Origin: Deltaproteobacteria bacterium
Lineage (GTDB): Bacteria; Desulfobacterota; GWC2-55-46
Direction: 5' to 3'
Assembly (NCBI GenBank): GCA_016219025.1
Contig: JACRCM010000100.1
Span: 1 to 62,939, forward strand
DNA length: 62,939 nt
In this document: one piece after another, positions 414 through 27,011 of the stretch
Position numbering within the stretch: position 1 is the stretch's first letter
How the letters are laid out: each line of letters starts with the position of its first letter
Translations under genes and position numbers: made by a program
Notes under the pieces: generated by a model
Database searches by the model: none
The model's input: the letters and a program-made list of their open reading frames with translations, nothing else
Told to the model about the DNA's origin: nothing

Positions 414-896
414 CTACTCCGCCGCCTCTATCGTGAAATCCCTTGTGCCGGTTGTGTTGATGTAGGAGTAGGTGGACGCCTCTTTCATGTTGACGATGGT
501 GCCGGTGGAGGTGTCCTTGATGGTCACGGTTCCGGCGTCCCTCAACTCTTCGGGCTTCCATCTGAGGACTACGGGCTTGTTCTTTATTGCGGAGGTTATG
601 CGGACGTCCCACGACTTCGTCCCGCCGTGGAAGCCCTTTATGTCGCGCCAGAGGGTGTCGGAGCCCTCGGCGAAGTACGCCTGTATGTCGCCGCCCAGCA
701 TGGCGGGCACGTCGAGTCTGGCGTCAAGGCCGTCCCTGGCGTCGGCCCTCTGGCCGAATACGAGCTTGTTTTCGGCGGTCGAGATGGTTGCCGTCATGGA
801 CGCCTCCCATCCCGGCACGGCATGAGCGATGGACGCGCCGAACGCGGCGGCCAGCAGGCTTATCATAAGGCAGGCGTATATCTTATTCGTCCACAT
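414..896 (-). CDS. Small secreted protein of unknown function (160 aa), last gene of the surface-protein cluster
   Basis: ORF with signal-peptide-like N-terminus MWTNKIYACLMISLLAAAFGASIAHA. It is co-directional with, and 130 nt downstream of, the cohesin protein gene. No motif recognised. Confidence 0.6.
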   Translation of the reverse strand: MWTNKIYACLMISLLAAAFGASIAHAVPGWEASMTATISTAENKLVFGQRADARDGLDARLDVPAMLGGDIQAYFAEGSDTLWRDIKGFHGGTKSWDVRITSAIKNKPVVLRWKPEELRDAGTVTIKDTSTGTIVNMKEASTYSYINTTGTRDFTIEAAE

Positions 897-961
897 GGTT
901 GCACCTGTTTGAGGCGGTTGATTATCGCAGCCCCGGTTTTTATTCGGTGAACTGATAACCT

Positions 962-1012
962 GTTCGCAATGGCAGAAAATACCTCTTTTTCAGGGCTCTC
1001 ACTTTGTAAGTC
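962..1012. repeat. Fragment of a MITE module (reverse-complement homologue of 55569-55619)
   Basis: CGCAATGGCAGAAAATACCTCTTTTTCAGGGCTCTCACTTTGTAAGTCCCG aligns with the reverse complement of CGCGATTTACAAAGTGAGACCCCTGAAAAAGGGGTATTTTCCGTCATTGC at 55569-55619. Confidence 0.55.
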
Positions 1013-1026
1013 CCGGCAACTATAAA

Positions 1027-3279
1027 TCACGGCCTCGGCATTATGAGCGTATACGTGTCGTCGGCCTTGTTGAGATAGAGCCAGTATCCGAGCCACGGCG
1101 CGAGCGTGGCCTCGGGGTTGCCGCCCGCGGCCTCGAACGTGTAGGTGTTGCCCCAATCCGTGCCCCTGTAGTAGTAGATCGCGTTCACCACCCAGCCGCT
1201 GGCCGCGGCGTCGAGCCACGTGACCGGCGCGGCGGCGCCCTTCTGCACGGCCGCGTTGCGCAGCGTTACGTTCCCCGCATAGGGGTTGGCTATGAGGTTC
1301 CAACCGGCGCGCAGCGTCACCGCGTAATCGGCGGAGAGCACGTCGGCATACGCGCCGAGCTCCGGCACGGTCAGCTTGCCGACCGCCTTCCTCGTGTAGT
1401 AGCCATCCCCGGGGACTACCGGGTTGTTCGTGTCCACGAGCACGTAACTGCCCTTGTTGGCGTTATCGAGCGTGCCTGACGAGAGCCATTTATACGTCTG
1501 GGTCGAACCGAACGCGGCGACCCCGTCGAGACGCGCCGCGCTGATATCCCTTGGCACTGAGAGCAGGTTGTAGCCGTTGAGGAACTGGATGGACGGGCCT
1601 TTCTGGTCGCCCGTGGCCGGGTACCTGAGCACCGTGCCGTCCGCGAGCTTTACCTCGAAGTAATACTTATGGTACTGGGAAGGCCCAAGATGGGTCGGAT
1701 ATGAACAAGACGCCCCGGCGGCCCATGAGCCCGCGCAGTTGAGGTTGACGGCATAGTAGTCCGTTGTCTGAGGCGCGCCCCTGCCGGTCATGTAGAGCCT
1801 TGCATACTGCGGCTGCGCCCCTGCCGGGTCTTTCACTATCATGCCGAAGTTGAAGGCCAGATCGACCCTTGGCTTGCCGGTCGCGGTGTCGAGGTTGTCC
1901 GCGTCGCTCCCGCCGTCCTCGCGCATTATGCCCGGCGTCCCGGTGTCGTCCGACGCGACGGAGAGGCCGTTCGGCGCGGTCGGCGTCACGTAGACGGCGG
2001 TCGCGCCGATGGAGACGTTGCCAGCGTTGTCAAGCGCGCATACGCGGTAGGCGTAAGGCACGCCGTTCAATACGGACTTATGCACGAAGGACGAGCCTAT
2101 GCCGGTGTATAGCGCCGTCCCGGAGGCGCATGAGACCGGGGCCGCGCCCTCGGCGTAGACGAGTTTGAAGAGGTTGAGCCCGCTGCCCGCGTCGCTGAAT
2201 CCGTCCCACGCCAGGCTGTTTACGGCGTTCGCGGCCACGGCGCTGAGCGTCCCGTCAACCGGCGCTGTCGCGTCGAGGGCAATAGTGTCGCTTGCGGTCA
2301 GTGAGACGTTGAGGGCCGCGTCCCTGAACTGCGCGTATACGGTCTTTGCCCCGTCACCCGGGGCAAGCTGCCACGCGGCGGACGCATTATACGCCTGCCA
2401 CGCGGCCCACGCCGCGTTGTCGTTGCTGAACCTCATCTCGGCGACTGCCCTGTTGTCCGTGGCCGCGGGCGCAAGCGTCACCGTCGTCGAGTTGGCGTAT
2501 GCGCCGTTATTATTTATGACGACCGTGCCGGTGGGCGGAACCGCGTCGGGCACGTCGAAGTTCGCCGTGACCGCCGCATCAGCGGTCATGGCGGCGACGC
2601 ACGGCCCGGTGCCCGCGCATGACGGGACAGACCACCCGATGAACTGCATGCCCGCGTCGGCAACCGCGGTCAGCGTCACCTGCACGCCGTCGTAGAACTG
2701 CGCCGAGCACGTCGTGCCGCAGTCGATGCCAACCGGCGAAGACGTCACAACGCCCGTGCCCGCGCCGCTTGGAACGACGGTCAAGGTATATCTGGCCACG
2801 ACCCCGCCCACGACCGTGGCGTTGACGACGGCCGAGGGTATCTCGGTCCCTCCTACCATGCCGAGTATCACGCCGCTGAGCGTGATGTCTGAGATGCCCG
2901 CGGCCTTGACGTAGAAGTTGACGGTGGCGATGGTGAGCGGCGCGCCGCTAAGCGGCGGGTTGTTGAGGACGAACGCCGCGGCCTGACCCGCGCCGGTGGC
3001 GTTGTCGTAGACCGCCTTTATGGTCTGGTCGAAGCCCGCGTTGACGGTTATCGTCCGCACGTCGAGCACCGCCTGATTATAGTTGAACGCGAACTGGTAC
3101 CCGCCGAGGTTCGCCACGTTATCGACGACTATATCTACGCCGATGACGTCTCCGGGGTTAGCGGATGCCGCGGACGGCATAACCTGCACCTGCGCGGCAC
3201 CTGCGCCATTTGCAAAGGCGGCCACAAGGCCCATGAAGGCGATAACCGTTATTATGAAGAGTCTCTTAATCTGTCTCAT
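1027..3279 (-). CDS. Secreted cohesin-domain protein (750 aa). Order: N-terminal cohesin, InlB-B-repeat/Ig-like module, FN3/chitobiase-like modules, then two C-terminal G(W/Y)NL...GxGY(W/Y) modules.
   Basis: Signal-like MRQIKRLFIITVIAFMGLVAAFANGAGA. The cohesin-like stretch is VMPSAASANPGDVIGVDIVVDNVANLGGYQFAFNYNQAVLDV...ATVNFYVKAAGISDITLSGV. YTLTVVPSGAGTGVVTSSPVGIDCGTTCSAQFYDGVQVTLTAVADAGMQFIGWS is typical of InlB B-repeat-type modules. Confidence 0.8.
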   Translation of the reverse strand: MRQIKRLFIITVIAFMGLVAAFANGAGAAQVQVMPSAASANPGDVIGVDIVVDNVANLGGYQFAFNYNQAVLDVRTITVNAGFDQTIKAVYDNATGAGQAAAFVLNNPPLSGAPLTIATVNFYVKAAGISDITLSGVILGMVGGTEIPSAVVNATVVGGVVARYTLTVVPSGAGTGVVTSSPVGIDCGTTCSAQFYDGVQVTLTAVADAGMQFIGWSVPSCAGTGPCVAAMTADAAVTANFDVPDAVPPTGTVVINNNGAYANSTTVTLAPAATDNRAVAEMRFSNDNAAWAAWQAYNASAAWQLAPGDGAKTVYAQFRDAALNVSLTASDTIALDATAPVDGTLSAVAANAVNSLAWDGFSDAGSGLNLFKLVYAEGAAPVSCASGTALYTGIGSSFVHKSVLNGVPYAYRVCALDNAGNVSIGATAVYVTPTAPNGLSVASDDTGTPGIMREDGGSDADNLDTATGKPRVDLAFNFGMIVKDPAGAQPQYARLYMTGRGAPQTTDYYAVNLNCAGSWAAGASCSYPTHLGPSQYHKYYFEVKLADGTVLRYPATGDQKGPSIQFLNGYNLLSVPRDISAARLDGVAAFGSTQTYKWLSSGTLDNANKGSYVLVDTNNPVVPGDGYYTRKAVGKLTVPELGAYADVLSADYAVTLRAGWNLIANPYAGNVTLRNAAVQKGAAAPVTWLDAAASGWVVNAIYYYRGTDWGNTYTFEAAGGNPEATLAPWLGYWLYLNKADDTYTLIMPRP

Positions 3280-3485: not shown

Positions 3486-3541
3486 AATCCTTCCCATGCC
3501 CCCTTATCCCGCATATGGCCGCTGGCTGGAATAGTGTCTTT

Positions 3542-3599
3542 CCCCTCCCCTTTTTTAAGGTGAGGCGGCCTTTTGCCTCACCTTAAACAAGGGGAGGGG
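3542..3599. repeat. Nested inverted repeat (outer CCCCTCCCC/GGGGAGGGG, inner TTAAGGTGAGGC/GCCTCACCTTAA)
   Basis: Read directly: CCCCTCCCCTTTTTTAAGGTGAGGCGGCCTTTTGCCTCACCTTAAACAAGGGGAGGGG. No U-run follows on either strand, so it is not a classical terminator. Confidence 0.85.
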
Positions 3600-3818: not shown

Positions 3819-5384
3819 TCAGTTCACGCCCGTCTTTGCCGGGTATTCCTTGCCCGAGGCGGTTATATATGTGACCTTAGTTCCTTTCTTGCCCATCTCC
3901 GTCTCCACCCTGACCTTTGCCACGCGCTCGCCGTTGAAGGTCGGCAGGTTCATGGCGATGAGCTGGGTCACGGTGTATGTGGCCGAGGCGATGAGCACGT
4001 TGTTGCCGTCGCCCAACGTCACTGACGCCGTCGCGGTCGTCGCCGCATCCGACAAGCCGTCGAGCGCGGTGGTAAGCGTGGACGTAGCGTTGGCGCCCGA
4101 CGGGACCGTCCTTACCGTCACCGTCGTGCCCCTCGGTATGTTGACGCCGGCGACCTCGACGGTTACGGGCATCGCCGTGCCCTGCGGGAGCGTCACGTCA
4201 GCCGAGCCGGTCGGGTTGGCCGGGACCGCCACGCCCGCGACCTTCGATATTACGAGCGAAGGGGTATTCGGCACGGACAACGGCCCAGGAAGGCCGAAGG
4301 AATAACCCGGGTCCGTATAGCCCGACCAGTTGGTGTTGTTGGCCTCGATGCGTATCCAGCCGTACCCGCCGTATCCGCCGTTATTCCAGCCGTCCTGGTC
4401 GTTGTAGCCGCCGCCGCCGCGCCTTGCATAGAGTCTGGAGTCCATCCACCAGCCGCGTGTGTCCCACCAGTAGTTGCCGTCCCTCCAGACCGACTCTGAC
4501 ACCAGCCTTATGGAACCGGCTGCCCCGCCGCCGCCTGCGCCGCCGGCGCCTTGGCCATAATCATACCCGCCCCTGCCACCGTCGGCGTTTATATGCCCCT
4601 GCACGGTGATGGAGGTCGAGGAGGCGATGAGTACCGCTCCTCCTCCTCCTCCGCCGCCGCAGCCATTGAAGCTGGAGCCTGCCGTACCGCCGCCGCCGCC
4701 TGAGCCACCTACAAGGGGCAGAAGCGATGCCTGGCCATAAGAGACGCCGCCTGGTATGGCGTCAGCCCATGTGCAACCCCAGCCTGCGAACGCGCAAGAT
4801 CCGGCCTCCTGGGAGCCGCCGCCGCTGCCGCCGCCCGTTCTGCCATAGAGCGGCCATTGGTTGGACGGATATTGATAGCCGCCCTGTCCGCCGCCGGGCC
4901 CATGCCCCGGACTTCCGTGCGCGCCGTAGCTCCCGCCGAAGTTTGCGGACATGCCACCGAATCCGCCGTCAAACCCGCCGGGCCCGCCCTTGCCGGGCTG
5001 GCCGTCGTCCCCGAGCTTGCCGTCGCCGTACGTGCCGCAGTCTTTGGCGGCGTCGCCCAAGACGTCGAGATATCCCCTTATGGCCACGTCCCCGCTCGTC
5101 CTTATCACGACCGGCGTGTTGGCCGCGTTCTTCGTGAACGTCACAGTGACCTGCTGAGGCACAGTGAAGGTCGTATAGTCGAGTATCCCGTCCGGCGGCA
5201 GTTGAATGACCGTATCGACCGTCGGAGAGAACGCGCCGAGGCAAGTCGGCCCTGACGGGCAGACGCTGCCGCTGTCAAAGACCGCCTGCGCCTGTCCGGC
5301 GGACAATATCGTGGCCGCCGCTATCGCGGCCGCCGGGACCAACCCGGCCCGCCACGGCCTCCATCTTCCATTTATTATCTTCAT
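3819..5384 (-). CDS. Secreted glycine-rich (beta-solenoid-like) protein, 521 aa from the ATG at 5384
   Basis: The ORF track gives 3819-5453. I prefer the internal ATG at 5384, which is preceded by AAGGAGG and followed by MKIINGRWRPWRAGLVPAAAIAAATILSAGQAQA. The core has repeated GGSGGGGG / GGGGGGGAVLIAS..I.V.G.I.ADGG.GG units. The C-terminus is Ig-like (VTLPQGTAMPVTVEVAGVNIPRGTTVTVRT). Confidence 0.75.
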   Translation of the reverse strand: MKIINGRWRPWRAGLVPAAAIAAATILSAGQAQAVFDSGSVCPSGPTCLGAFSPTVDTVIQLPPDGILDYTTFTVPQQVTVTFTKNAANTPVVIRTSGDVAIRGYLDVLGDAAKDCGTYGDGKLGDDGQPGKGGPGGFDGGFGGMSANFGGSYGAHGSPGHGPGGGQGGYQYPSNQWPLYGRTGGGSGGGSQEAGSCAFAGWGCTWADAIPGGVSYGQASLLPLVGGSGGGGGTAGSSFNGCGGGGGGGAVLIASSTSITVQGHINADGGRGGYDYGQGAGGAGGGGAAGSIRLVSESVWRDGNYWWDTRGWWMDSRLYARRGGGGYNDQDGWNNGGYGGYGWIRIEANNTNWSGYTDPGYSFGLPGPLSVPNTPSLVISKVAGVAVPANPTGSADVTLPQGTAMPVTVEVAGVNIPRGTTVTVRTVPSGANATSTLTTALDGLSDAATTATASVTLGDGNNVLIASATYTVTQLIAMNLPTFNGERVAKVRVETEMGKKGTKVTYITASGKEYPAKTGVN

Positions 5385-5484: not shown

Positions 5485-8400
5485 TCATGCCCAAAAATCA
5501 GGCGGCCCTCTGCGGAAGGCCGCGTTGCGCCATACGGATGTCTGGCCGGAGACGTAGAGCGGCTCATGCGTCATACGGTTGAAGACGCGCGGCGCATCAG
5601 TCGCCGTCAGACTGGTCAAGACCACGCCGCCGCCCCTCTTCCCGGAGTCTTTATAGCCGCTCCCGGACATGGCGGTAAGCGCCCGCTCGATGCCCCGCAT
5701 CGACCACGGGACTGACGGCAGGGGGCCTTTATCCGCGATAGACGCGGCGGCCATCATCACGTCCGGCGTGAGCCTGCCCGCATCCAGCGGGCATAAGGCG
5801 GCGTCAACGAGTTGAGCGGCCAGCGCCAGGGGCCCGGTGCCCATCAAACCTTCCGCCTTGTCCGCCCCATTGCCTGCGCCGGCCATTATCATGCCGTTGG
5901 ACGCGACCGGCCTGTAGACGGTAAAGGTATTCGCGGCGGAGGCGGCCGTATCGGAACGGCCGTAGATGGTCGATATGACAACCACCCTGTCGCCGCCGGT
6001 CGCAAAGCCGTCGATATGCACCTGCACGGCCGCCTGCGTGCCCGCCGCATTGACGGTTATGGTGGAACTTACGTTCATGCCGTCAGGCGGGATGAACGAG
6101 ACCGCCGTCGCGTCGTTGAGCGCCGTCCCGTTTATGGTCAGCGTGAAGGTGGAGCCAGCGGCGCTGATTATCGGCTGTACGGATATTATCGAAGGCGCGG
6201 GCCCGCCGTATATGACGTTGGCGAACGGCGCCGCCGGCACCCTGAACCCGCCCATCGGGATATTGACGCTGTAGGTCTGCGTATTCACGGCCTCAATGTT
6301 GCCGGCCGCGTCTACCGCGAAGTAGTTGAGCGTGGCGCTCGCCAATACGTTTATCGGCCCGGCATAGACCGCCGACGCGGGCGTGGGCGTTGAGCCGTCG
6401 GTCGTGTAGTATATCGTCGCGGGTTCGTCGGCAGTAAGCGCGACCCTCTGGGGCGCGGCGTATGCGCCGCCAGCCGGAGAGGCCGTTGTGACCGGCGGCG
6501 TCGTGTCAAGCACGACTCTCCTTATCCGCGCCTCATACTTCGACATGACGTCAAGGCCGCCCGCGCGCATGAACGTCGCCGGGCCGTCCCCATCGCCGCT
6601 ATAGAGCGCGGCCTGAACTGAACCGTCAACAACGTCCCTGCGTCCGTTGTCTGCGCTTGCAACTGCCCACGGCAGGGCGGCAAGGCCGATCGCATAAGTC
6701 TCGGTCTTGACCGTCTCGGCGTTACCAACTGCATCCACCGCATAGAACTTCAAAGTGGCGCTGGAGGCGATTGAAATCGGCGCGGAATAGACCGCCGTGG
6801 TGCCCGCGCCCGCGCAGGAAAGGGTTATGGTCTGCCCGGCGGCCTCAGCGGACGCGGTCGCTGTAAAGACCTGACCGGACGGAGAGCATGTCCACGCGGC
6901 GGCATAATCCTTCGCGCACCCGACGGCCGGGTCTCCGATTGAGCCGGTTGTAATATAATAACTGCACGTCGTCAATCCGTCGCAAGTGGAGGATAGATGC
7001 GGCGTTACGTTCCCCGTGCCCGTGCCGCAGTTGGCCCCGTACGTGCCGGACTGGACGGCGATCGTCCCATCCCCCGTGGTATTCGGCGTGCTGCCGTCCG
7101 TCGTGTAGTAAATCGCCGCCGGCTCGTTCGCCGTAAGCGTCACGGCCTGTGCCGCGCCGTAAGCCCCGCCGACCGGGGATGCAGTCGTCGTAGGCGGCGT
7201 TACGTCCACAACGAGCGCTATGCTGTGGTCTCCGCCCGCGCCCACGACGCCTCCGGCGGCGGTTATGCCGCTCACCTGCACGGCGCTCCACCTGTCGATG
7301 GTCGTCCCGTCGCCGAGTTCGCCGTCAGAGTTATAACCCCACGCCAGTATCGTGCCGTCGTTTTTGAGCGTAAGCGAATGGTCCCAGCCCATCGCCACGC
7401 TTATAATCCCTGAGACGCCAGCGGGTTGGACAGTCACCGGGCTGCCGGTATTGGTGCCGTTGCCAAGGTCGCCGTTCCATGACGCGCCCCATGTTCTGAC
7501 CGTGCCGTCGCCAAGGAGTGCGATGCTGTTCGGGTCGTCGCCGCTCGCAAGGGCCACAACGCCGGAGAGGTTGTTCACGACCACGGGCACGAGGCTGTTG
7601 GCATACGTGCCGTCGCCGAGTTGTCCGTTGTTATTACTGCCCCATGCCCTGACCGTGCCGTCGGACATGAGCGCGAGCGAGTGGTTCCACGACGCCGTGA
7701 CCCCGGCAACGCCGGAGAGGTTCGGCACGCGCACCGGCGCGTATCTGGTCGTATTCGTCCCGTCGCCGAGCTGGCCGTAGTTGTTATAGCCCCATGCCCA
7801 TACCGTGCCGTCGCCCCTGAGGGACATAGAATACTCCCAGCCGCCCGATATGGCAACCACGTTGGAGAGACCGAGCACCTGCACCGGCGCAGACCTGTTT
7901 ATATTTGTCCCGTCGCCCAGTTGGCCGTAGTTGTTATAGCCCCACGCCCAGACCGTGCCGTCGTTCCTGAGCGCGAGCGTATGATTGCCGCCCGTTGCAA
8001 CGGCTATCACTCCGGTAAGGCCGCTCGCCTGAACCGGCGTCAGACTGCTCGCCGTGGTCCCATTGCCAAGTTGACCGTATCCGTTATCCCCCCACGACCA
8101 GACCGTGCCGTCATTCCTCAAAACAGCCGTATGGTCGCTCCCGCCGTCAGCCTGCGTCGCGCCGGAGAACCCTATGTTAACCGGCGTGGACGCGCTATTG
8201 TAGGTGCCGTCCCCAAGCTGTCCGCTCCAGTTCGCGCCCCATGTCATAACCGACCTGCCGATAAAGGCGAGGTTCGTGGACTGCGCCGCGCTCGCGTTAC
8301 CAGCAAGATCAACGGCTATGAACCTGAGCGTGGCATCCGCCGCCACGTAGACAGGAACGCCCTGAACCACGGACAACGAGGAGGCCGAAGGCGCACTGGC

Positions 8401-15067: not shown

Positions 15068-15069
15068 GG

Positions 15070-15792
15070 TCATTGCGCGGTCTGCCGCTTCCATTCGGGA
15101 AACCCGCCATACAGTATGCGGACCATCTTGAACCCGGCGCGGCGAAGCTCCTCTGCCGCCTTGCGGCCGGCGTTATCCGCGCCGTCGACCACGACGACCG
15201 GCTCGTCCTTTGCCCAGCCAGAAGAAGTCCTCAATACCCGCGCGGGCTTGACGTTCACGGCCCCGGGCACGTGTCCGGCCTTGAATCCCTGCGCTGGCCT
15301 TATATCCACTATCACCATGCCCGTTCCGTTCTGCGCCGCCCTGCTCAACTCGGGCGCTGTGATAAAGTCCACAAGGCCGCCAGGCACGACGCCCTGCGGC
15401 GCGGCTATGGCCGCGTCAGTCCCACTCTCCCAGTGTGCCATGCCGCCGTCCATTATAAAGACCGAGGCATACCCGGCGGAGTCGAGCTTGCCTGCGGCCT
15501 CGCCCGCCTCGACCGAGCCGATGCCGTCGTCATAGAGCACGATGACCGCGTCCTTGGGAAAACCCTTCTTATGCACGACGAACGCCGGGACGTTTATCGC
15601 GCCCTCTATGTGCTTTCTCCGATACGCGATAGCGGTCCTCGCGTCCACGAGCAGGAACCTCTCCGCGCCTTCCTGCATGGAGCGGACGTCCTCGGCGGAG
15701 ATGAACCCGTAGGCGTCCGCCTCGGACGGGTGGATGACGCCTAACGACGCGACGGAGAACGCGAACGCGAAGAAGAAAAACGTCTTTTTCAT
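15070..15792 (-). CDS. Secreted tandem rhodanese-homology-domain protein lacking any cysteine (240 aa from the ATG at 15792)
   Basis: The ORF track gives 15070-15849. The ATG at 15792 is preceded by GGAGGG and gives MKKTFFFFAFAFSVASLGVIHPSEADA. Two rhodanese-like halves are present (LLVDARTAIAYRRKHIEGAINVP; VIVDIRPAQGFKAGHVPGAVNV). The active-site loop positions read YDDGIGS and VDGADNAGRK. The mature protein contains no Cys. Confidence 0.8.
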   Translation of the reverse strand: MKKTFFFFAFAFSVASLGVIHPSEADAYGFISAEDVRSMQEGAERFLLVDARTAIAYRRKHIEGAINVPAFVVHKKGFPKDAVIVLYDDGIGSVEAGEAAGKLDSAGYASVFIMDGGMAHWESGTDAAIAAPQGVVPGGLVDFITAPELSRAAQNGTGMVIVDIRPAQGFKAGHVPGAVNVKPARVLRTSSGWAKDEPVVVVDGADNAGRKAAEELRRAGFKMVRILYGGFPEWKRQTAQ

Positions 15793-19244: not shown

Positions 19245-19245
19245 C

Positions 19246-19433
19246 TATATCCCTGCCGCAACGCGCCCTGTTATCCAACCCGGCGCATCCGGCCCTCGAA
19301 CCGCGGCCTATATCCCTGCCGCTTTCGTCCTGTTATCCAACCAGGCGCATCCGGCCCTTGAACCGCGGCCTACATCCCTGCCGCTTTCGTCCTGTTATCC
19401 AACCCGGCGCATCCGACCCTCGAACCGCGGCCT
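19246..19433. repeat. Tandem array of 3 x 62-63 nt that fills the whole intergenic gap between the 2172-aa and 1135-aa genes
   Basis: Units start at 19246, 19309 and 19371: TA(T/C)ATCCCTGCCGC(AACGCGC/TTTCGTC)CTGTTATCCAACC(C/A)GGCGCATCCG(G/A)CCCT(C/T)GAACCGCGGCC. The right end abuts the upstream stop (19432-19434). The left end supplies the RBS-like AGGGAT before the ATG at 19244. Confidence 0.95.
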
Positions 19434-22400
19434 ACTGGCAGCCGCCCCCAAACGTTATGCCGCCTCCGCCATATCCGCCTCCGCCGCCGCCTCCGCCGCC
19501 GCCGCCGCCTCCGCCGCCGGTATATCCGCCGCCGGTGTAGGTTATGGACGGCATGTTCTCAAAGATGCAGAGGAAGCAGTTGACGCCGTTTTGGATGGTA
19601 TCGAGGAGGCCGAGGCCGCCGAGACCTTCAACGCCCGCGGCCTCGCCCGCGGCCTTTATCGCGTTCAGTATGTCGGCGAGGGACGGCCCTGTTATTATTT
19701 TGCACGCGGCCCCGAACCTGTCGGCCGCGTCGCTCCCGATGGCGGCCTGGGTGACGGCCTTGCCGCACTCGCACACGTCCTTGTTCTTTATGCACTTGCA
19801 GGCCGCCGCCGCGAGGTTTGCCACCTTTTGAAGCCGCCCGGCGGACATGAGCCCGCCCGCGAACCCGAGGCAATCGCACCAGTCGCACTTAGAGTCGCAC
19901 AGCAGTCCCGTCGGGTCGTATTGCTTCTTGGGCACTATGGTCTTCTTCGACGGGGCCCTGGTCTGCGTCAGGACGCCGGCGGCACAGGTGTATTCGGCGG
20001 CCACGTCCACCTCGACCGGTATCTCGCTGCACGGGTCGACCGGCTCAGGCGACTTGTACGGGTTGACCGTAATCGTATACGGGATTATCACCGTCTCCTG
20101 CGCGTTCAGCCTCGGTATCTGGGTGATAAGCGTCTCCACCTTGACGCCCGGGCCTGCTGAGGCGTCGACCCTTACGTTGTCCGCGGCCACGAGGCCGTGG
20201 TTCGTCACCCTGTATTCGCCCGCGTATGTCGAGCCTATCTCGATTTCGAGCTTCTCATACGACGGCTCTATCGTGATGACCGGGGCCGGGACGTTCGTCT
20301 CGAAGGTCGCCTGAAGCGTTATCTCATACGGATCGCGTATCATAACCGGCGTGACAGTCCACTCGTAGGTAACGAAGACGTTGTTCATGAAGACGTCCAC
20401 GGCGGTCGTGATGTCGGGCGAGACCTCGAACGTGCCTATGACGTTCTCGTGCCCCGGCGCGCTTATCTTGTAGTTGTACATGCCGATGGGCAGGGTGTCG
20501 AAGGCTATCTCGCCGTTGGCGCCGGTCGCGCCAGTAAGCACTATGTCGCCGAGCACCTGATGCCCGAAGGTCAAGGACGCGCCCGGCACGCGCTGGTTCA
20601 AGGAGTCCGTAGCCTGGAAGTGCACCCCGCCCCTGTCGCTAGAAGTGACCGTCGCAAAGAGGTTGACCGTATACGGGACATGGTTGTCGGAGTGGATTAT
20701 TATCGCGTCCGAATGCACGCCCTGAGAGACGTCCGCCCCGGGGCGGAACGATACGCCCACGTCCACCGAGTCTCCAACCGCCACCGTGCCGAGCTGCAAC
20801 GGCGTAGTAACGCTCATCCACGGCGTCGTTGGCGCCTCCAGCCAGACGTTCTCAAGCGGCGCGTAACCGGCCACCCTCATCTTGAACGACGCGGTCTTTA
20901 TCGTATCCGTGGTCACGCCAAGCTCTATGAAGCCGGGGTCGGTGACTATCGTCGGGAGCGCCCTTATGAGCGAGAGGTTCACGTCCATCGTCCTCGTCAG
21001 CCCCTCGGCGGTCGTCGCCGTGATGGTCACGAACGAGGCGTCAGGCGCGTCTATGGCCGCGTCCATCGTGAGTGTGGCCGAGGTTGCCGCGCCACCGTCG
21101 ATGGCCGAGGCCGTATTTGCAGTATCGAGCGTTGCCGTTATGCCGGACCCATCGGCATGACTCAACTGCAAGCCAGTCAATGCCGTCTCGCCGAAGTTGC
21201 GTAGCGATACCGGCAGACTGAATTGCGCGTTCTTCGACATCCTGATGCTGGCGGACGATGGATCGAAGGCAAGGCCGTATATGACGAAACCGGACTGTAT
21301 GGGCTTATCGTAGACCGTCGGGTGCACGGCCCAGACGCTGTAGTTGCCCGCCTCGCCCGCAAGCGGCGTAAACGTCACGGAATACGCGCCATTGGCGTCG
21401 GTAAGGGCGTAGAGATACCGGTCGAAGCCCTTGACGCTTATCCCGACCTTGACTATCGCGTTCGGCGCTGGCGCATTCGTCGCCGAATCATAGGCAAAGC
21501 CTGAGAGGACGACGTTCTGGCCGGTGTCGTAGGCCGCTCTGTCGGACGCCACGGTCGCGTAGTACGTGGCATTGGTTACAGTCACCGCCGACTTGCCCGT
21601 AAGCGGCCCGCCCTGCACCTGATCGGCCCTGCGGTAATGGTAGTAGATATTATCCACGTGCGCCTCAAGATAGACCTTGTCAGGTATGGACGAAGGCACG
21701 AGGAAGGTCACGGGCACGGAGAGGAAGCTCCCGCCGGACGGCATCTGGGCCATCGAGTACGTGGCGTAGTTGATGCAGCCGACGCCCGTGTGTTTGAGGT
21801 TGCCGCCCGCGAGCACGTTGCCGTCGCCGTCTTTGAGATATACGTATACGTCCGGCGACGCCTGGCCGTTCGTGGCCGAGAGGAACTCCACCGGCACGGA
21901 GCCGTAGTTGTAGACCTTCAAGCGCACGCTCGCATACGCGCCCCTGACTATCGGGTCGTTGAATATTTCGATCTTCCTGCCGGGGTCGTAGGCGTTGTGC
22001 GTGAAGGCCGCGACCCTTTGCACGGTCACGTCGGCAGTGGAGAGCTGTGTCTGCGTGACGTTCAGGAGCCTGTAGTCCACTATGCCCGTGCCTACGGTGA
22101 ATATCTTATCGACGCTATACGCCGCGCCCGGCGCAATGCTGACCGCGGCAGGGTCCGCGAACTGCGCGACCGTGCCGAGCTGGTCTTTAAGCTCGTATGC
22201 CACGGGGCTTATGTTCACGTCCGAGGTATGCGCGTTCGTCATCTTGACGGAGACGCCCTCTATATACTGCTTGTTCAGCAGGTTGCCGCCGGACGGGGAC
22301 ATGCCGTACCTCTCAAGGGTCGCCGCCACCGGGTATACCGCGCCGTTGCGGGCGACGCCCTCGTGCCCCGCCGCGTCTACCGCGCTTACGCTGTAGGTCT

Positions 22401-25400
22401 GGACCGCGGAGCCGTCGAATGACGCGTCGGTATAGATGCTGCCGGACACCGGAGAGGCCGTGAGCTTGACGCCGTTCTTGTAGACGTTATAGCCGGTCAC
22501 GTCCGTGGCCGGAGAAGCGGTCCAGCCCAGATACGCATACGCCCCCTCGTAAGCCACGACCGCGAGCGAACCCATGACCGGAGGCGCGTCAACGGTGAAC
22601 GCGGCCGTAACCGTGACCGTCCGTCCCGCCTTGTCAACGGCCTGAACCGCGAGCGTCTTGGCCCCGTCCGCGTCGATGGCCGTCCCTGCCTGATAGAGGA
22701 GGCCGTTCAAGGTCATGGAGAAGTGGTCAAGGTTCGCGTCCGTGACGTTTATAACCGGGGTCACGGCGGAGCCATACAGGTCGCCGTTGGCAACGCCCTG
22801 TATGTCAATTGCCGGGTCTGTCAGGTCGATGGTGAACGCCGCGTCCTTCGTGGTGAGCCGCGCCGAGGTGTCCATCGCCTCTATGTGAAGGGCATGACGG
22901 CCTTCAGCGGCCACCGGAGTGCCGCTCGCATAAGGCGCGCCGTCAAGGCTCGCGGTGACGCTCAAGAGGGAGGCATCGTTTACGGTTATGACGGGCGTCA
23001 GGGCCGCCGGACTGAACTGGCCGTCCGTTACGCCCGTGACGATGACCTCGGGCGGCGCAAGGTCGTAGAGGAAAGCGGCGCCGGCGGAAGGCGCCCCCTC
23101 ATTGCCAGCCGCGTCAACGGCCGTAACCGCGTAGTAATAGGTCGCGTCGGCGGGAGGCGTATCGGACGCCGCGAGGGCGGCCATACCGGTGAATATGCGG
23201 GCCGCGTCCGCGAGACTGACTATCGGAGAGCGCGCCCTGTAGACGTTGTAGCCAGCAACGGCCTCTCCGGCCGGCGCAATCCACGCAAGGGAGACGGCGC
23301 TTCCGGCAAGGTTCGCCGTAAGTCCGCTGGCCTGCCCCGGAGGAGTTCTGTCGGAGACTCCGCTGGCCGGGCCGCTTGCAGCGCTCTCATTGCCCGCCGA
23401 ATCCACGGCGCTCACCGTATAGGCATATGTCCCATCGGCTGAGGGCAGGTCTGAATAAGCAAGGCCGGCAACGCCGGAGGCGGCAAGCGCGGCGCCGCGG
23501 TAGACGTTATACGAGGCCGCGTCAGTTGCACCCGGCCAAATGAGGTCTACATGCCCGGCGCTTGCAGTGGCCGCCGCAAGACTTGCCGGGACGCCCGGCG
23601 CGGTGGTGTCGAGCGTCATGAAAGCGCCGGAGGTTACCTCGGCGCCTATATTGCCGAGGCCGTCCCGCGCCTCCATTATAAAGAGCCACTGGCCGTCGGA
23701 CATGGCCTGCGTGACGTTGAGCGAACCTGACCACGCCGCACCCGCGCCGGCAAGAGGCACATCGGCAAGAACGCCGGTGGGCGATTGGAGTTTCAGGAGC
23801 GGGGTTGCGCCCGCCGTCTCGTCAAGGTTGAGCGTGACCGCATACGTCCCCGGCTTATAAAGGGCCTTTGACGGAGAGACGGTTATCGTCCCGGCCGGGC
23901 CGGCCGTGTCTATCTGAAGCACGCCGCCGGAGGTTATCTCCGTGCCCTTGTTGCCGAGCATGTCGCGGCCTGAGAAACCGAAGGCCGCCGACCCGGACGG
24001 CTGCAACGCGCCGACGGTATACGCGCCGGTCCATTGGTTCGTCCCGGCCTGGGTAAGCTCTATGCCGACGGGCAGGCCGCCGGGCGGGGTTATGCCAAGA
24101 TACGGCGTCCCGTTTATGGCCTCGGAGGTGGTAAGCGTTACCTGTACCGCGCCCGGCCCGACCGGGGACGCCGGAGTGGTCGTGACTACGGCCGTCGGCG
24201 GCAGGCTGTCGCGCGCGGCGGACAGGGTGCCGGAGAGGACACTCTCGTTGCCGGCCTGATCGAGCGCCGTTATACCGTAATAATAGACCCCTTCCACGGG
24301 CGGGTAATCGTCCATGGACGTGGCTGAAAGGCTCCTTATCAGCGTCGCGCCGGAGGCCGTTGTAAACGGCGACATCGAGCGGTAGACCCTGTATGCGGCA
24401 GGGACCTCGGTGGCCGGGGACGTCCACGCGAGCGCTATCCTGCCGCCGGAGAAGGCATCGGCGGCCACGAGCGCGGGAGGCGGAGGAGGCCCGGTGTCGA
24501 TGGTCAGCATGACGCCCTGCGACGGCTGGGACGTGCCTATGGCGTCGCCCGCCCTGGCCGTAAGGAGGTTCGAGCCGTCTATAAGGGTCGCGGACGCAAG
24601 ATAGAAGTTCCCCCAGACGTCGGCGTTGACCCTGCCTATATACGTGCCGTTGTCATAGACGGACACGAGGGTGTTCGGCTCGGACGTTCCTGAGACGTTT
24701 AGCGTGGCGACGCTGACGGCCCCTGCGATAGGCGATGTGATTGCGGGAGGCAGAGGAGGTGCCTTCGACAGGACGACCGTCCTTACGCCGACCGACGAGC
24801 GGCCCACGCCGTCGTAGGCCACGGCCTTTATCTCATAGCTCTTATCCGGCAGCTGGATGACGTTCCACCAATACGATATGGAGCCGCCCCATGCGGTCTG
24901 CGCCAGGACGCCGTCCACGTATAATTCCATCCGGGCGATGCCGGAAGAGTCGCTCGACGACGCGGCGATGGTCAATGGCCTCGTGACGGTCGAATCTGCC
25001 CCCGGGCTTGCGACGAGGAGCGCCGGGTCGGTGGTGTCGAGGAGCATCTGCGCGGACGCGGTCTGGGTGTTGCCGGTCGGGGACTTGAACTTCACGTAGA
25101 GGCTTTTATACCCGTCGCCGGTCGAGAGCGCGAACGGCGCAAGGCCGGAGAACGGCTGATACGACGCGCCGGTAAAACCCGCGTCCTCGCTGATCATGTA
25201 CTCGGAACAGGTAAGGCATAAAAGGGAGAGGACTATGTCCGGCGTGGTGGCCGCCGGCCCCGGAGAGGCGAACGACGCGCCGAGTATCGGCACGAGGCTC
25301 GACCACGGCGCGTAGACGACCCCGTCGCTAACCGGATTGCCGAGGCCGGAGGCGTTGACCAACCCGCCGGTTGCGGTATCGTCGGATGTGTCTTTTGGCC

Positions 25401-25950
25401 CGGTTGGGTGCCCCCACCAGTTGTTCGTGGCGGTTACCGGGTTTGATACGTCTTCGACCGTGACCGCCGTTGCATTGCCCTCGATGACGGAATTGGCGAT
25501 CGACGGATGCGCCCCGGCCTTCACCTCGACGCCGATGACGTTGCCCGATATGACGGAATTCGTGATGTTAGGAGAAGACGTCCCCTCGAGCCTTATGCCG
25601 GAGGAACTGTTCTTCACCGCGGCCACGTCGATGGCGGGAGAGGCGTTATACAGGCAGATGGCCGGGCCCCCGGACGCCCCGGCATACTCGACGGCCGTGC
25701 CGCGAAAACTCGTATAACTCGCCGAACCCCACACCTCAACGCCCTGCCACGGCGATACGGCCGAGCCGGTAAGGGTCGCACCGGCGGCCTGGAGCGTGTC
25801 GCGGACGATGAGCTTGCCCTCGGAAGCGGCCTTGACGGTGACGCCGTCGCCGATGACGAGGGTAGCCGCGTCCGCGGCCCCATGCCATAAGGCGGCGGAC
25901 GCCGCAACCAGCAATATCAGTATGAGTATCCGGGTTCGCATGATTATCAC
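19432..25950 (-). CDS. Giant secreted multidomain protein (2172 aa): NosD-like beta-helix, Ig/FN3 arrays, carboxypeptidase-regulatory-like domains, a C-terminal Cys-rich region and a poly-Gly tail
   Basis: Signal-like (M)IIMRTRILILILLVAASAALWHGAADA. Start is either GTG 25950, overlapping the upstream stop as GTGA, or ATG 25941. PbH1-like repeats: NSVISGNVIGVEVKAGAHPSIANSVIEGNATAVTV. Repeated FN3-like Y(R/N)VY(R/K) units. Ends ...TGGGYTGGGGGGGGGGGGGGGYGGGGITFGGGCQ. Confidence 0.9.
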   Translation of the reverse strand: MIIMRTRILILILLVAASAALWHGAADAATLVIGDGVTVKAASEGKLIVRDTLQAAGATLTGSAVSPWQGVEVWGSASYTSFRGTAVEYAGASGGPAICLYNASPAIDVAAVKNSSSGIRLEGTSSPNITNSVISGNVIGVEVKAGAHPSIANSVIEGNATAVTVEDVSNPVTATNNWWGHPTGPKDTSDDTATGGLVNASGLGNPVSDGVVYAPWSSLVPILGASFASPGPAATTPDIVLSLLCLTCSEYMISEDAGFTGASYQPFSGLAPFALSTGDGYKSLYVKFKSPTGNTQTASAQMLLDTTDPALLVASPGADSTVTRPLTIAASSSDSSGIARMELYVDGVLAQTAWGGSISYWWNVIQLPDKSYEIKAVAYDGVGRSSVGVRTVVLSKAPPLPPAITSPIAGAVSVATLNVSGTSEPNTLVSVYDNGTYIGRVNADVWGNFYLASATLIDGSNLLTARAGDAIGTSQPSQGVMLTIDTGPPPPPALVAADAFSGGRIALAWTSPATEVPAAYRVYRSMSPFTTASGATLIRSLSATSMDDYPPVEGVYYYGITALDQAGNESVLSGTLSAARDSLPPTAVVTTTPASPVGPGAVQVTLTTSEAINGTPYLGITPPGGLPVGIELTQAGTNQWTGAYTVGALQPSGSAAFGFSGRDMLGNKGTEITSGGVLQIDTAGPAGTITVSPSKALYKPGTYAVTLNLDETAGATPLLKLQSPTGVLADVPLAGAGAAWSGSLNVTQAMSDGQWLFIMEARDGLGNIGAEVTSGAFMTLDTTAPGVPASLAAATASAGHVDLIWPGATDAASYNVYRGAALAASGVAGLAYSDLPSADGTYAYTVSAVDSAGNESAASGPASGVSDRTPPGQASGLTANLAGSAVSLAWIAPAGEAVAGYNVYRARSPIVSLADAARIFTGMAALAASDTPPADATYYYAVTAVDAAGNEGAPSAGAAFLYDLAPPEVIVTGVTDGQFSPAALTPVITVNDASLLSVTASLDGAPYASGTPVAAEGRHALHIEAMDTSARLTTKDAAFTIDLTDPAIDIQGVANGDLYGSAVTPVINVTDANLDHFSMTLNGLLYQAGTAIDADGAKTLAVQAVDKAGRTVTVTAAFTVDAPPVMGSLAVVAYEGAYAYLGWTASPATDVTGYNVYKNGVKLTASPVSGSIYTDASFDGSAVQTYSVSAVDAAGHEGVARNGAVYPVAATLERYGMSPSGGNLLNKQYIEGVSVKMTNAHTSDVNISPVAYELKDQLGTVAQFADPAAVSIAPGAAYSVDKIFTVGTGIVDYRLLNVTQTQLSTADVTVQRVAAFTHNAYDPGRKIEIFNDPIVRGAYASVRLKVYNYGSVPVEFLSATNGQASPDVYVYLKDGDGNVLAGGNLKHTGVGCINYATYSMAQMPSGGSFLSVPVTFLVPSSIPDKVYLEAHVDNIYYHYRRADQVQGGPLTGKSAVTVTNATYYATVASDRAAYDTGQNVVLSGFAYDSATNAPAPNAIVKVGISVKGFDRYLYALTDANGAYSVTFTPLAGEAGNYSVWAVHPTVYDKPIQSGFVIYGLAFDPSSASIRMSKNAQFSLPVSLRNFGETALTGLQLSHADGSGITATLDTANTASAIDGGAATSATLTMDAAIDAPDASFVTITATTAEGLTRTMDVNLSLIRALPTIVTDPGFIELGVTTDTIKTASFKMRVAGYAPLENVWLEAPTTPWMSVTTPLQLGTVAVGDSVDVGVSFRPGADVSQGVHSDAIIIHSDNHVPYTVNLFATVTSSDRGGVHFQATDSLNQRVPGASLTFGHQVLGDIVLTGATGANGEIAFDTLPIGMYNYKISAPGHENVIGTFEVSPDITTAVDVFMNNVFVTYEWTVTPVMIRDPYEITLQATFETNVPAPVITIEPSYEKLEIEIGSTYAGEYRVTNHGLVAADNVRVDASAGPGVKVETLITQIPRLNAQETVIIPYTITVNPYKSPEPVDPCSEIPVEVDVAAEYTCAAGVLTQTRAPSKKTIVPKKQYDPTGLLCDSKCDWCDCLGFAGGLMSAGRLQKVANLAAAACKCIKNKDVCECGKAVTQAAIGSDAADRFGAACKIITGPSLADILNAIKAAGEAAGVEGLGGLGLLDTIQNGVNCFLCIFENMPSITYTGGGYTGGGGGGGGGGGGGGGYGGGGITFGGGCQ

Positions 25951-26888
25951 TTCATCCCGAAGCTGCCCGATACGTTGAATACGTCGGTCTGGTCAACGGA
26001 GCCGTCTCCGTTCATGTCGGAGTCGCCGTTGAAGCACGCGCCGCCCCGGGCCGTGGCGTTCCATTTCACCTCTCTTAGCACGTCGAGGATGTTGACCTCG
26101 CCGCTGCAGTCGAGGTCCTGCATGAGCGCGCAGGTCACGGGCGTCTGAACGTCTATCTTCTCGGCGTCGGGCACCAGCTTGTAGAAATGCTCGACGGCGC
26201 ACCCGTCAAGCCCGTGCGACTCGGCAAGCATGACCCGCTCGCCGCCGGTCAGGTTGAGGCTGTAACCGGTGGCCGGGTCGTATAGGTTGTTGAGGTTGAA
26301 GTACGCGGCCCCTGAGCCGCCGGAAGTCAGCGTCGAGAGCGGGTGCGACGCCTTGTTGTCAAGGACGGTCAACGTCACGGCTACGCCGTCAGTGGACGCA
26401 TTGGCGTCCTTCTGATAGACCGGCGGTACGGCGAGGAGACTATTGGCGAACGGCGTCGTCACCCCCGCCGTTGTGGTCATCTGGTATGCCGCCTTCTCCG
26501 TCGTCACCGTTGCCGGGGCCGCGGGGAGCAAGGCGGACTCGGACGTGGACTTCGAGGTAGTAACGGTCTGATAGCAATACAGGGTGTTTGGAGAGAGGTT
26601 GGAGACGGTAACGCGCAGGTTCCCGGTGGAGTCGCCGGAACGCGCCGAGGTGAACGCGCCGTATACCGGCGTTGCGCAATCCGCCATGAACATGGAGATG
26701 GACGGCGCGGACGGTTCGCTTGAGAGCCAGACAACGGTGAATGACGACGGGGTGACGTCGGTTACGGACAGGCCGGAGACCGCGGGCACGCCCGCCTCGG
26801 AGCCGATAGGCAGCACGAGGAGCGCCGACGCGGCCGCAACGGCGGCGAGGCTGATGACGAGTCTCTTGTGCAATGCAACCGCAGCCAT
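25947..26888 (-). CDS. Secreted FN3 + C-terminal dockerin protein (313 aa from the ATG at 26888), first gene of the cluster
   Basis: The ORF track gives 25947-27011. The ATG at 26888 is preceded by GGAGG and gives MAAVALHKRLVISLAAVAAASALLVLPIGSEA. FN3-like: SGLSVTDVTPSSFTVVWLSSEP...LSPNTLYCYQ. The C-terminus has two EF-hand-like dockerin segments, DLDCSGEVNILDV and DMNGDGSVDQTDV. Confidence 0.8.
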   Translation of the reverse strand: MAAVALHKRLVISLAAVAAASALLVLPIGSEAGVPAVSGLSVTDVTPSSFTVVWLSSEPSAPSISMFMADCATPVYGAFTSARSGDSTGNLRVTVSNLSPNTLYCYQTVTTSKSTSESALLPAAPATVTTEKAAYQMTTTAGVTTPFANSLLAVPPVYQKDANASTDGVAVTLTVLDNKASHPLSTLTSGGSGAAYFNLNNLYDPATGYSLNLTGGERVMLAESHGLDGCAVEHFYKLVPDAEKIDVQTPVTCALMQDLDCSGEVNILDVLREVKWNATARGGACFNGDSDMNGDGSVDQTDVFNVSGSFGMK

Positions 26889-27011
26889 CCGAGACCTCCG
26901 GGTATTAGCACAGGGGTGAAGCCGAGTCTTAAACCGCGCGTCAATAAAAAAGCGCCGCTGCCATTTGGCGGCAATCGTGGTTCGAGGCTTACATCGGGCA
27001 TTGCCGGGCAA

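Follow-up and report, generated by a model that had tools for sequence, protein, structure and literature searches.

What kind of system, if any, is encoded by the run of eight consecutive genes at the left end of contig JACRCM010000100.1 (GenBank assembly GCA_016219025.1) is the question that this locus raises. The eight open reading frames (ORFs), named here g1 to g8, lie on the minus strand between positions 414 and 27011, and the window analysed is the entire 62,939-bp contig. The host is an uncultured Thermodesulfobacteriota ('Deltaproteobacteria') metagenome-assembled genome (MAG) whose PurB has a best database identity of 84%, and its taxonomy indicates that it is presumably diderm. The answer that we favour, with a probability of roughly one in two, is that g1 to g7 represent one copy of a widespread but unnamed neighbourhood of environmental Gram-negative bacteria, which encodes a Sec-exported, non-enzymatic assembly built around giant fibre-like proteins.

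The genes follow one another from right to left as g1 (25947-26888; 313 aa from its ATG, or 354 aa from an upstream TTG), g2 (19432-25950; 2172 aa), g3 (15837-19244; 1135 aa), g4 (15070-15792; 240 aa), g5 (5485-14622; 3045 aa), g6 (3819-5384; 521 aa), g7 (1027-3279; 750 aa), and g8 (414-896; 160 aa). ORF calls thus agree with an earlier description of this DNA made from its letters alone (the preliminary description), which had placed eight minus-strand genes of these sizes between the same limits and had noted that the first two overlap in a GTGA. This overlap joins the g1 stop to the g2 start; an ATG located 9 nt downstream offers g2 an alternative start and a more typical signal peptide (MRTRILIL...). 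All eight products open with a basic n-region, a 12-aa hydrophobic core (mean Kyte-Doolittle values of 2.1-3.1), and an AXA-like site, so that a hydrophobicity heuristic supports the signal-peptide-like N-termini previously proposed for the whole set. None of the eight contains a second transmembrane-like segment or any hydrophobic segment past aa 40. Pfam and NCBIfam scans recovered the repertoire of structural and binding domains already listed for the cluster and, at curated cut-offs, returned no catalytic family in g1-g8, in line with the lack of catalytic motifs noted before. The earlier failure to see secretion machinery or a familiar sorting signal was reproduced as well: the window ORFs scanned encode no secretion system, and no NCBIfam model for C-terminal sorting (T9SS CTD, PEP-CTERM, LPXTG, GlyGly-CTERM, MYXO-CTERM) matched g1-g8. 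All-against-all BLASTP revealed no paralogy among the eight proteins.

The evidence that these genes belong together comes from 91 related loci (L001-L092, excluding the duplicate Logan contig L003). A scan of metagenomes with g3 as the anchor confirmed at least 447 of 600 candidate stretches and returned 80 loci, whose ORFs were called and searched with iterated segment hidden Markov models (HMMs). MAGs named Nitrospirota, Thermodesulfobacteriota, and Myxococcota share the order giant-g3-g4 with an unclassified MAG and with metagenome contigs; what comes next is g1 and g7 or else g5, g6, g1, and g7. Directly downstream of g3 lies g4 in 28 of the 49 metagenome loci with room for it, and also in L005 and L009-L012, while two further metagenome loci carry g4 directly before g3. 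The gene after g4 is g1 in 13 metagenome loci and a g5-type beta-helix gene in five. Altogether, the carriers are uncultured bacteria named under at least five phyla.

Homologues of all of g1-g7 were found in two loci, L009 from a JGI metagenome and L013 on a 585-kb contig from Hainich groundwater, both arranged g2-g3-g4-g5-g6-g1-g7 and both with the conserved core of g2; no RHS is among the Pfam families recorded for L009. The same holds for L005, a Nitrospirota MAG, which displays g2-g3-g4-g5-g6, including the g2 core, in a stretch that excludes g1 and g7. An unclassified MAG (L010) shows the order cohesin protein-g1-g2-g3-g4-g5, with the g2 core, a g5-type gene unaccompanied by g6, a faint Pfam cohesin match in the upstream protein that stands for g7, and no RHS recorded. 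A larger set (L011, L017-L023, L025-L027, L030, L031, and L033) carries g1, g3-g4, and g7. In this set, the g2 core was detected in L011, L020, L022, L026, and L027 and in none of the others, and g6-type genes in L023 and L031 only; RHS is present in L019, L022, and L027, was not found on scanning L020, and is not recorded for the available part of the L011 giant. The Thermodesulfobacteriota member of the set, L011, reads giant-PBP4-like-g3-g4-g1-g7. In the Myxococcota locus L012, an RHS giant with the g2 core precedes a transglutaminase gene and g3-g4; g5-g6 and g7 were not found, and the g1 HMM matches a 473-aa ORF after g4 that has no dockerin motif. Finally, g5-g6 occurs without g1, g3-g4, or g7 in four loci: L004 and L008, both from Betaproteobacteria, have g5-g6 followed by a giant, which is g2-type and bears the g2 core in L004 alone, and the Geobacter-type L002 and L007 have a single giant of 5.7-5.9 thousand amino acids with a g5-like C-terminal half, followed by g6. 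No RHS is recorded for the giants of these four loci, and RHS_repeat falls on a 978-aa gene upstream of g6 in L008.

Two modules emerge from this comparison. Module A consists of a g2-core giant, g3, and g4, usually with g1 adjoining g7; module B consists of the beta-helix/TIG giant g5 followed by g6. The unit is made of these two linkable modules, each of which is also found alone. The neighbourhood is defined by a g2-core giant, a protein with the N-terminal domain of g3, and a tandem inactive rhodanese, all co-directional; the window contains this combination, as do L005, L009-L013, and many metagenome loci. Since MAGs assigned by name to several phyla preserve the gene order, g1-g7 are a conserved functional unit and not a chance cluster, and the scatter of homologues that the preliminary description had considered as a possible outcome gave way to co-localisation. 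Its view of the system as undescribed also stands: neither the unit nor its hallmark proteins have a name in Pfam, NCBIfam, the source annotations, or the open-access literature searched, and no description of the g3-g4 neighbourhood was found in open-access papers.

The eighth gene does not share in this conservation. The unit was originally drawn with eight genes, of which g1-g7 hold as a conserved neighbourhood, but neither phmmer nor a family HMM detected a g8 homologue in any of the 91 related loci, and g8 was dropped as a member. It belongs to a family without a Pfam or NCBIfam entry, with 267 representative homologues (E<=1e-3), mostly secreted proteins of ~160 aa that share the motif WEANLT...FGQ..DATDG. 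The same domain also appears as 5-9 tandem copies inside proteins of 1100-2500 aa.

How the products might work together is suggested above all by g1 and g7. In Pfam, g1 combines fn3/Pur_ac_phosph_N with a C-terminal Dockerin_1 that scores 18.3 bits, below the cut-off of 22.9; both calcium-loop motifs of the dockerin are nevertheless present (DLDCSGEVNILD and DSDMNGDGSVD). The g1 family was found in 23 related loci. Among its 21 related complete copies, 17 carry at least one dockerin-type calcium-loop motif at the C-terminal end, and in 17 the very next gene encodes a g7-type cohesin protein; a dockerin protein of the L036 neighbourhood reaches 28.1 bits for Dockerin_1. The cohesin of g7 occupies aa 32-138 (PF00963, 31.5 bits against a cut-off of 24.1) and is followed by InlB-B-repeat/Ig domains and a lineage-specific C-terminal part. 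Its cohesin-bearing N-terminus is present in 16 related loci, and Pfam found the cohesin again in six of eight g7-type proteins from other loci, above cut-off in L013, L021, and L031. Further along the protein, aa 241-750 match only L021 and L013 (E<1e-10), and no match in the related loci lies beyond aa 430; a partial match to the MXAN_2561 family of NCBIfam reaches 24.6 bits against a cut-off of 150. In the window, g1 and g7 sit at opposite ends of the cluster. The co-inheritance of cohesin and putative dockerin is the strongest mechanistic clue, and because of it g1 is proposed to dock on g7.

Both members of the g3-g4 pair look like binding proteins. Behind its signal peptide, g3 has a ~420-aa N-terminal region of tandem Ig-like sandwiches, OmpL47-type and FlgD-Ig domains, a PD40/TIGR04275 beta-propeller, and a C-terminal domain. 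In outline, it has four Ig-like domains and a propeller, the latter with six TIGR04275 repeats in NCBIfam. Its N-terminal region has no Pfam or NCBIfam model. An AlphaFold2 model of aa 1-460, built with 16 aligned homologues, is an all-beta string of sandwich domains (predicted local distance difference test score, pLDDT, 86.8), and a Foldseek comparison with the PDB gave only generic Ig, pilin, chaperone, and integrin-leg matches, with template-modelling (TM) scores <=0.2. At least 510 homologues exist, none with a functional name, in MAGs named Nitrospirota, Polarisedimenticolia, Verrucomicrobiae, Thermodesulfobacteriota, Myxococcota, and Gammaproteobacteria; its many invariant positions include C28, with which the mature protein begins. 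Two candidate relationships were set aside. Identity of g3 with TolB was rejected, as its score against the TolB equivalog TIGR02800 is far under the cut-off (54.6 against 343 bits) and the two have the propeller repeats alone in common; an HMM search did not bear out a kinship of g3 and g7 in their C-terminal domains (E = 0.059). As for g4, it consists of two Rhodanese stretches (5.8e-32 in Pfam) and is free of cysteine, as the preliminary description had observed, with Asp at both catalytic-Cys positions. Since Asp replaces both catalytic cysteines and almost all orthologues have a residue other than Cys at the catalytic position, g4 is regarded as catalytically inactive, and its sequence points to a binding module with no sulfurtransferase role.

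Giant g2 is organised as an N-terminal right-handed beta-helix, an array of Ig-like domains, a core of ~835 aa (aa 1126-1961), and a tail that is Cys-rich and poly-Gly and ends in GGGCQ. Pfam recognises Beta_helix/NosD, Big_7, Big_13, and CarboxypepD_reg. Full-length orthologues are found in L010, L013, and L035 at 37-48% identity, and the core aligns as a single block in 20 loci, RHS-bearing giants included, at 25-53% identity. Close orthologues share the ending, a Cys-rich segment, a poly-Gly run, and ..GC[QRK] (19432-19750 in the window).

Giant g5 has an N-terminal beta-helix and a TIG/Ig core, which its shorter orthologues share. The domain scans matched Beta_helix weakly, TIG, and CHB_HEX_C and Fn3_assoc in eight stretches apiece, and they recognised two RCC1-like propellers. 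Its orthologues in L005, L009, and L013 measure 1411-1441 aa and align to g5 aa 1-1200 and ~2790-2905. A MAFFT alignment with these three orthologues placed aa 1199-1868 and 1877-2795 in the window protein only, which delimits a window-specific insertion of ~1600 aa (aa 1199-2795; 6238-11028, minus strand) that contains the two RCC1-like propellers and the CHB_HEX_C/Fn3_assoc array. The right-hand junction of the insertion is confirmed by the independent Logan contig L001. All seven Nitrospirota- and Geobacter-type copies of g5, the window included, have a variable linker and then a terminal [FY]R[GA]PP (..FRRGPPD at 5485-5520). The conserved endings of g2 and g5, read from L004, L005, L009, L013, L035, L042, and the window, possibly act as docking or sorting signals. 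A comparison of the g2 and g5 cores with PDB sequences produced only a weak match to an X-module-like Ig domain (E = 0.005).

Adjoining g5, g6 is a protein with 20.7% Gly, an N-terminal beta domain, a Gly-rich core, and a C-terminal Ig-like domain, for which neither Pfam nor NCBIfam has a model. It has >1447 homologues of ~500 aa, all labelled 'hypothetical', from sources that include Geobacteraceae, Nitrospirota, Gallionella, Sulfuricellaceae, and Chitiniphilus, and the family alignment (A1) has 62 invariant columns, mostly Gly. In the AlphaFold2 model (pLDDT 79.8), the Gly-rich core is confidently modelled with little regular secondary structure. No meaningful sequence-profile match to solved structures was obtained, and none of 737 Foldseek PDB matches reached E<=0.001. 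The folds that do match are uncharacterised Gly-rich proteins of prasinoviruses, Orpheovirus, Pandoravirus, and uncultured phages (E of 3e-11 to 1e-5, TM ~0.3). With no PDB match, a polyglycine-II domain of the ALK-GRD or gp38 kind is unsupported for g6. In 12 of the 13 related loci that carry it, g6 adjoins a giant protein, standing after a g5-type giant in nine loci, before one in L006, and after a g7-type protein in L023 and L031. These thirteen include L006, which, like the window duplicate L001, does not figure among the g5-g6 loci enumerated above. L006 (Dokdonella) is the one true locus recovered by a profile scan of genome contigs for g6, which used poly-Gly peptide patterns and matched 600 stretches.

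Taken together, these features suggest an assembly of the following kind. The products would assemble after Sec export, with the g1 dockerin docking on the g7 cohesin. Proteins g3 and g4 would be binding, holding, or guiding partners of the g2-type giant, not enzymes, and g6 may cap or bind g5, perhaps through the [FY]R[GA]PP tail. Such a complex would keep the giants at the envelope or surface and mediate contact with other cells or particles; in toxin-bearing relatives, the same complex would serve contact-dependent antagonism. For the window cluster, adhesion or capture is the likeliest output because its giants carry extra binding modules, namely the g5 insertion, and neither RHS nor toxin.

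Several points weigh against this proposal. The signal peptides were judged by a home-made heuristic. The window yielded neither a conduit through the outer membrane nor an anchor, and the relatives yielded none consistently. Gene adjacency is the sole ground for pairing g3 and g4 with g2, and g6 with g5. The survey was anchored on g3, and the frequency of g2-, g5-, and g6-type genes in loci without g3 is not given by it. The beta-helix domains of g2 and g5 could be carbohydrate-active enzymes that escaped detection. The peptidoglycan-related neighbours seen in relatives are as compatible with a periplasmic or wall-bound structure as with one at the surface.

A more far-reaching reading builds on the same data. 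It proposes that the g3-g4 pair with g1 and g7, elsewhere joined by PBP4-like and transglutaminase-like partners, constitutes a dedicated pathway, in effect a new secretion or display system, by which giant Sec-dependent proteins, RHS toxins included, are moved, anchored, or presented at the Gram-negative envelope, and that g6 represents a new class of Gly-rich tips or caps for beta-helix fibres. We put it forward tentatively, with the odds clearly against it.

One alternative concerns the location of the structure. Clustering of all other neighbours in the related loci gave two recurrent families, a transglutaminase-like one (25 loci) and a PBP4-like Peptidase_S13 (14 loci), the latter directly upstream of g3 in all five loci in which an upstream gene was read (L011, L021, L023, L025, and L027). 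In the g7-type proteins of L023, L025, and L027, a PASTA domain follows the cohesin, and a YkuD L,D-transpeptidase (L027), a DsbA-like protein, and a TPR protein that weakly matches a beta-barrel porin occur as single cases. The PASTA, PBP4-like, and YkuD neighbours make a periplasmic or wall-anchored location possible. Accordingly, the cluster could encode a periplasmic or peptidoglycan-anchored scaffold, envelope-spanning or wall-associated and not extracellular, a reading that agrees with the presence of Sec signals only, the absence of an outer-membrane translocator from the window, the partners of the relatives that act on or bind peptidoglycan, the transglutaminase-like family of the 25 loci, and the low-scoring TolB likeness of the g3 propeller. 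We nevertheless consider it unlikely. Proteins of 2000-3000 aa that bear adhesin-type Ig arrays normally act outside the producer cell, as do RHS toxins such as those of the relatives; the window cluster has no peptidoglycan-related neighbour, and Peptidase_S13, transglutaminase, YkuD, PASTA, DsbA-like, and TPR extras are all absent from it; and the TolB score of g3 is the 54.6 bits already quoted, against a 343-bit cut-off. The extracellular fibre, coat, or attachment device of the preliminary description is likewise a candidate reading only, and a route across the outer membrane is not encoded in the window.

Carbohydrates provide another frame. Right-handed beta-helices often bear glycan-active sites, and the NosD-type helices of g2 and g5 might be lyases, hydrolases, or epimerases of a cellulosome-like complex for glycan binding or processing, whose parts are assembled by cohesin and dockerin. 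The CHB_HEX_C, Fn3_assoc, RGI_lyase-sheet, and CarboxypepD_reg repertoire is typical of carbohydrate-active surface proteins, and cohesin and dockerin share the locus. As in cellulosomes, a secreted cohesin scaffold (g7) and a putative dockerin partner (g1) are encoded together, adjacent to each other in most relatives. Unlike cellulosomes, however, the locus has a single cohesin and a single dockerin protein, with no dockerin-borne enzymes, no multi-cohesin scaffoldin, and no SLH or sortase anchor; its host is a Gram-negative Thermodesulfobacteriota-like MAG; and the pair belongs to a larger conserved unit that also encodes giants, an inactive rhodanese, and a propeller protein. In Pfam, the sole dockerin protein (g1) is of FN3 type without an enzyme domain, and g7 is a scaffold with one cohesin. 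No glycoside hydrolase, lyase, or esterase family reached threshold in Pfam or NCBIfam, no sugar transporters or glycan-use genes lie nearby, and the RHS-toxin versions of the neighbourhood are ill-suited to a nutritional role, all of which makes a glycan-processing complex improbable. Cohesin-dockerin pairs outside cellulose degraders are known, with unclear roles (Peer et al. 2009, as cited in PMC9012536).

The most informative link, which the preliminary description had overlooked, leads through the relatives to polymorphic toxins. In many of them, the g2-like giant is itself an RHS polymorphic toxin: the giant 5' of g3-g4 keeps the g2 core and continues with DUF6531, an RHS/YD shell, and a toxin. 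L027 (936-5927) combines RHS with a barnase-family ribonuclease and is followed by a Barstar immunity gene, L019 (3581-5755) has an RHS fragment with a PLA2-like C-terminal end, and L012, L022, and L091 encode giants with RHS/YD shells. The Sec-dependent class of RHS polymorphic toxins is the closest known kind. For this class, Table 1 of the polymorphic-toxin survey gives no signature neighbourhood genes, and N-terminal inactive transglutaminase anchors are mentioned for Sec-dependent toxins (Zhang et al. 2012, PMC3482391). Loci of Sec- or T2SS (type II secretion system)-dependent RHS toxins resemble the present neighbourhood in their giant signal-peptide proteins with Ig-like or filament regions, in the DUF6531-RHS/YD shell-toxin end of the relatives' g2-type giant, and in associated transglutaminase-like modules. 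They differ in that the giant here has a constant g3-g4 pair beside it, in many cases along with g1 and g7, and in that g2 and g5 of the window are without RHS, toxin, or immunity gene.

It could still be argued that the window is a polymorphic-toxin locus too, with the Cys-rich/poly-Gly C-terminus of g2 or part of g5 as an unrecognised effector and g3, g4, g1, and g7 as accessories for delivery or related to immunity. This would accord with the relatives that carry an RHS cage and toxin on the same g2 core beside g3-g4 (L027, L019), with the RHS/YD shells of L012, L022, and L091, and with the C-terminal ~100 aa of g2, which are conserved among non-RHS orthologues and belong to no known family. 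We find it distinctly improbable. Neither Pfam nor NCBIfam matched RHS_repeat, RHS, or TEN_YD-shell in any of the eight window proteins, or toxin families in them or at the g2 and g5 C-termini in particular; no small immunity-type ORF follows g2 or g5, the g2-g3 spacer being filled with 62-nt repeats and the g5-g6 spacer also lacking one; and the g2 tail is conserved, not polymorphic, among close orthologues, the opposite of a polymorphic toxin tip. The window is not regarded as a toxin system because RHS, toxin, and immunity genes are all missing from it.

That unrelated adhesin genes were brought together by chance, or by an assembly artefact through repeats, is hardly credible: assemblers could be misled by the repetitive domain arrays and by the tandem repeats between genes, and g8 has no conserved linkage, but the gene order recurs in many independent assemblies and in MAGs named under several phyla, and the independently assembled Logan contig L001 (SRR12113407) reproduces the g5-g6 junction exactly, covering g5 residues 2219-3045 and g6 at 100% identity. 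Exact g3 and g8 sequences are present in Logan assemblies too. Given these matching sequences, the chimera that the preliminary description had warned of is unlikely for g3, g8, and g5 2219-3045 with g6.

Three other known systems can be compared with the Sec-exported assembly proposed here. Two-partner secretion and contact-dependent growth inhibition (FhaB/CdiA with TpsB/CdiB) share with it giant fibre-like exoproteins, a beta-helical N-terminus after the signal peptide, and, in some family members, a toxin tip with an immunity gene. No TpsB/CdiB-type transporter was found in the scanned window ORFs, among the Pfam-read genes of related loci, or in the families that recur as neighbours, and Pfam lists no two-partner secretion or haemagglutination family at the N-termini of g2 and g5, where the match is to Beta_helix/NosD. 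Because TpsB is missing, the cluster is not two-partner secretion.

For g5-g6 alone, an analogy with bacteriophages comes to mind. In phage T2/S16, the gene for the long tail fibre gp37 is followed by that for the Gly-rich tip adhesin gp38. Here, too, a gene for a long fibre-type protein immediately precedes one for a Gly-rich protein, and the g6 fold resembles uncharacterised Gly-rich phage and giant-virus proteins. In contrast to gp38, g6 has its own signal peptide, no gp38-type structure is among the top 50 Foldseek PDB matches listed, and the TM score to the viral models is ~0.3. The giant proteins of Omnitrophota exceed 10,000 aa, and their loci are associated with PilZ genes and a conserved T2SS/pilus-like locus (bioRxiv 10.1101/2023.11.21.568195). 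They, too, are giants of uncultured bacteria, extracellular and containing dockerin-like and beta-propeller parts, but the T2SS/pilus-like locus, the PilZ genes, and the size of >10,000 aa were not found here.

The relevance of the neighbourhood lies in the proteins it accompanies. Giant Sec-dependent adhesins and RHS toxins are common in Gram-negative genomes, and their surface delivery and retention are largely unexplained; accessory genes that keep constant company with such giants, in MAGs named under at least five phyla, are concrete candidates for tests. What is new is this accessory set together with two unmodelled families, the N-terminal region of g3 (g3N, at least 510 homologues) and g6 (>1447), whose description would provide an annotation for many 'hypothetical' proteins of metagenomes from sediment, groundwater, and soil. 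Experiments are feasible because parts of the system occur in cultured bacteria: Chitiniphilus purpureus, with g5-g6-g2 at about 3.94-3.96 Mb of CP106753.1; Geobacter argillaceus, with a g5-type giant and g6 on VLLN01000003.1; Geotalea toluenoxydans; and Dokdonella immobilis.

The intergenic regions of the cluster have peculiarities of their own. Upstream of g1, between this gene and the stop of a DHH-CBS-PolyA_pol gene (27113), lies an AT-rich spacer (27012-27070, minus strand) with A8-GTTGC-T8 followed by TTGCTT...TATCTA-like hexamers. From its sequence, it is a possible promoter of the cluster; promoter and terminator scans of the window gave counts no higher than shuffled expectation. The g2-g3 spacer is filled by three copies of a 62-nt tandem repeat (19245-19434; 91% matches in Tandem Repeats Finder, TRF) that reaches into the g2 stop codon. 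Each unit is a copy of the sequence immediately 5' of the g3 start, and a separate repeat search recovered the same repeat as family D13. In the g4-g5 spacer, TRF located 4.3 copies of an 80-nt repeat (14747-15093; 94% matches) that covers the final 24 nt of g4. On the coding strand, its unit consists of a GC hairpin and a T-rich tail, and four terminator-like matches fall within the repeat (14812-14829, 14892-14909, 14972-14989, and 15052-15069); terminator-like hairpins at this place are unusual for an apparent operon. The 540-nt g6-g7 spacer contains a near-perfect hairpin (3542-3599) with 25-nt arms that are 96% complementary and an 8-nt loop.

At the left border, the contig start cuts an ISL3 transposase gene, of which the 3' end remains (1-110), and a nested palindromic element lies next to it (145-264). 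A second copy of the core of this element occurs at 62554-62584, with 3 mismatches in 31 nt, and by its make-up the element looks like a repeat of the repetitive extragenic palindromic (REP) or miniature inverted-repeat transposable element (MITE) type. As the ISL3 gene is cut by the contig start, the cluster may extend past g8 and its left boundary is not fixed. The discrete accessory unit of the preliminary description is therefore upheld as a conserved unit, but its ISL3 border is the end of the contig and delimits nothing.

The rest of the contig encodes housekeeping and signalling proteins, and the window has no tRNAs or Rfam families. G+C content is ~0.60-0.66 (mean ~0.64) in the cluster region (1-28000) and ~0.54-0.64 (mean ~0.59) in 28000-62939; the higher value in the cluster could reflect its Gly/Ala/Val-rich proteins or a foreign origin. 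A 698-aa ORF on the plus strand (27071-29167), antisense to the DHH-CBS-PolyA_pol gene and without a Pfam match, is in all likelihood a spurious frame of high-GC DNA. The right half of the contig (46572-48891, 57788-61105, and 61364-62398) holds three genes of response-regulator/HD-GYP type (HD_5) and one hybrid histidine kinase-GGDEF gene, and in L013, the closest full relative, a PAS-GAF-HD_5 gene stands just upstream of the cluster; the cluster may be linked to cyclic di-GMP signalling.

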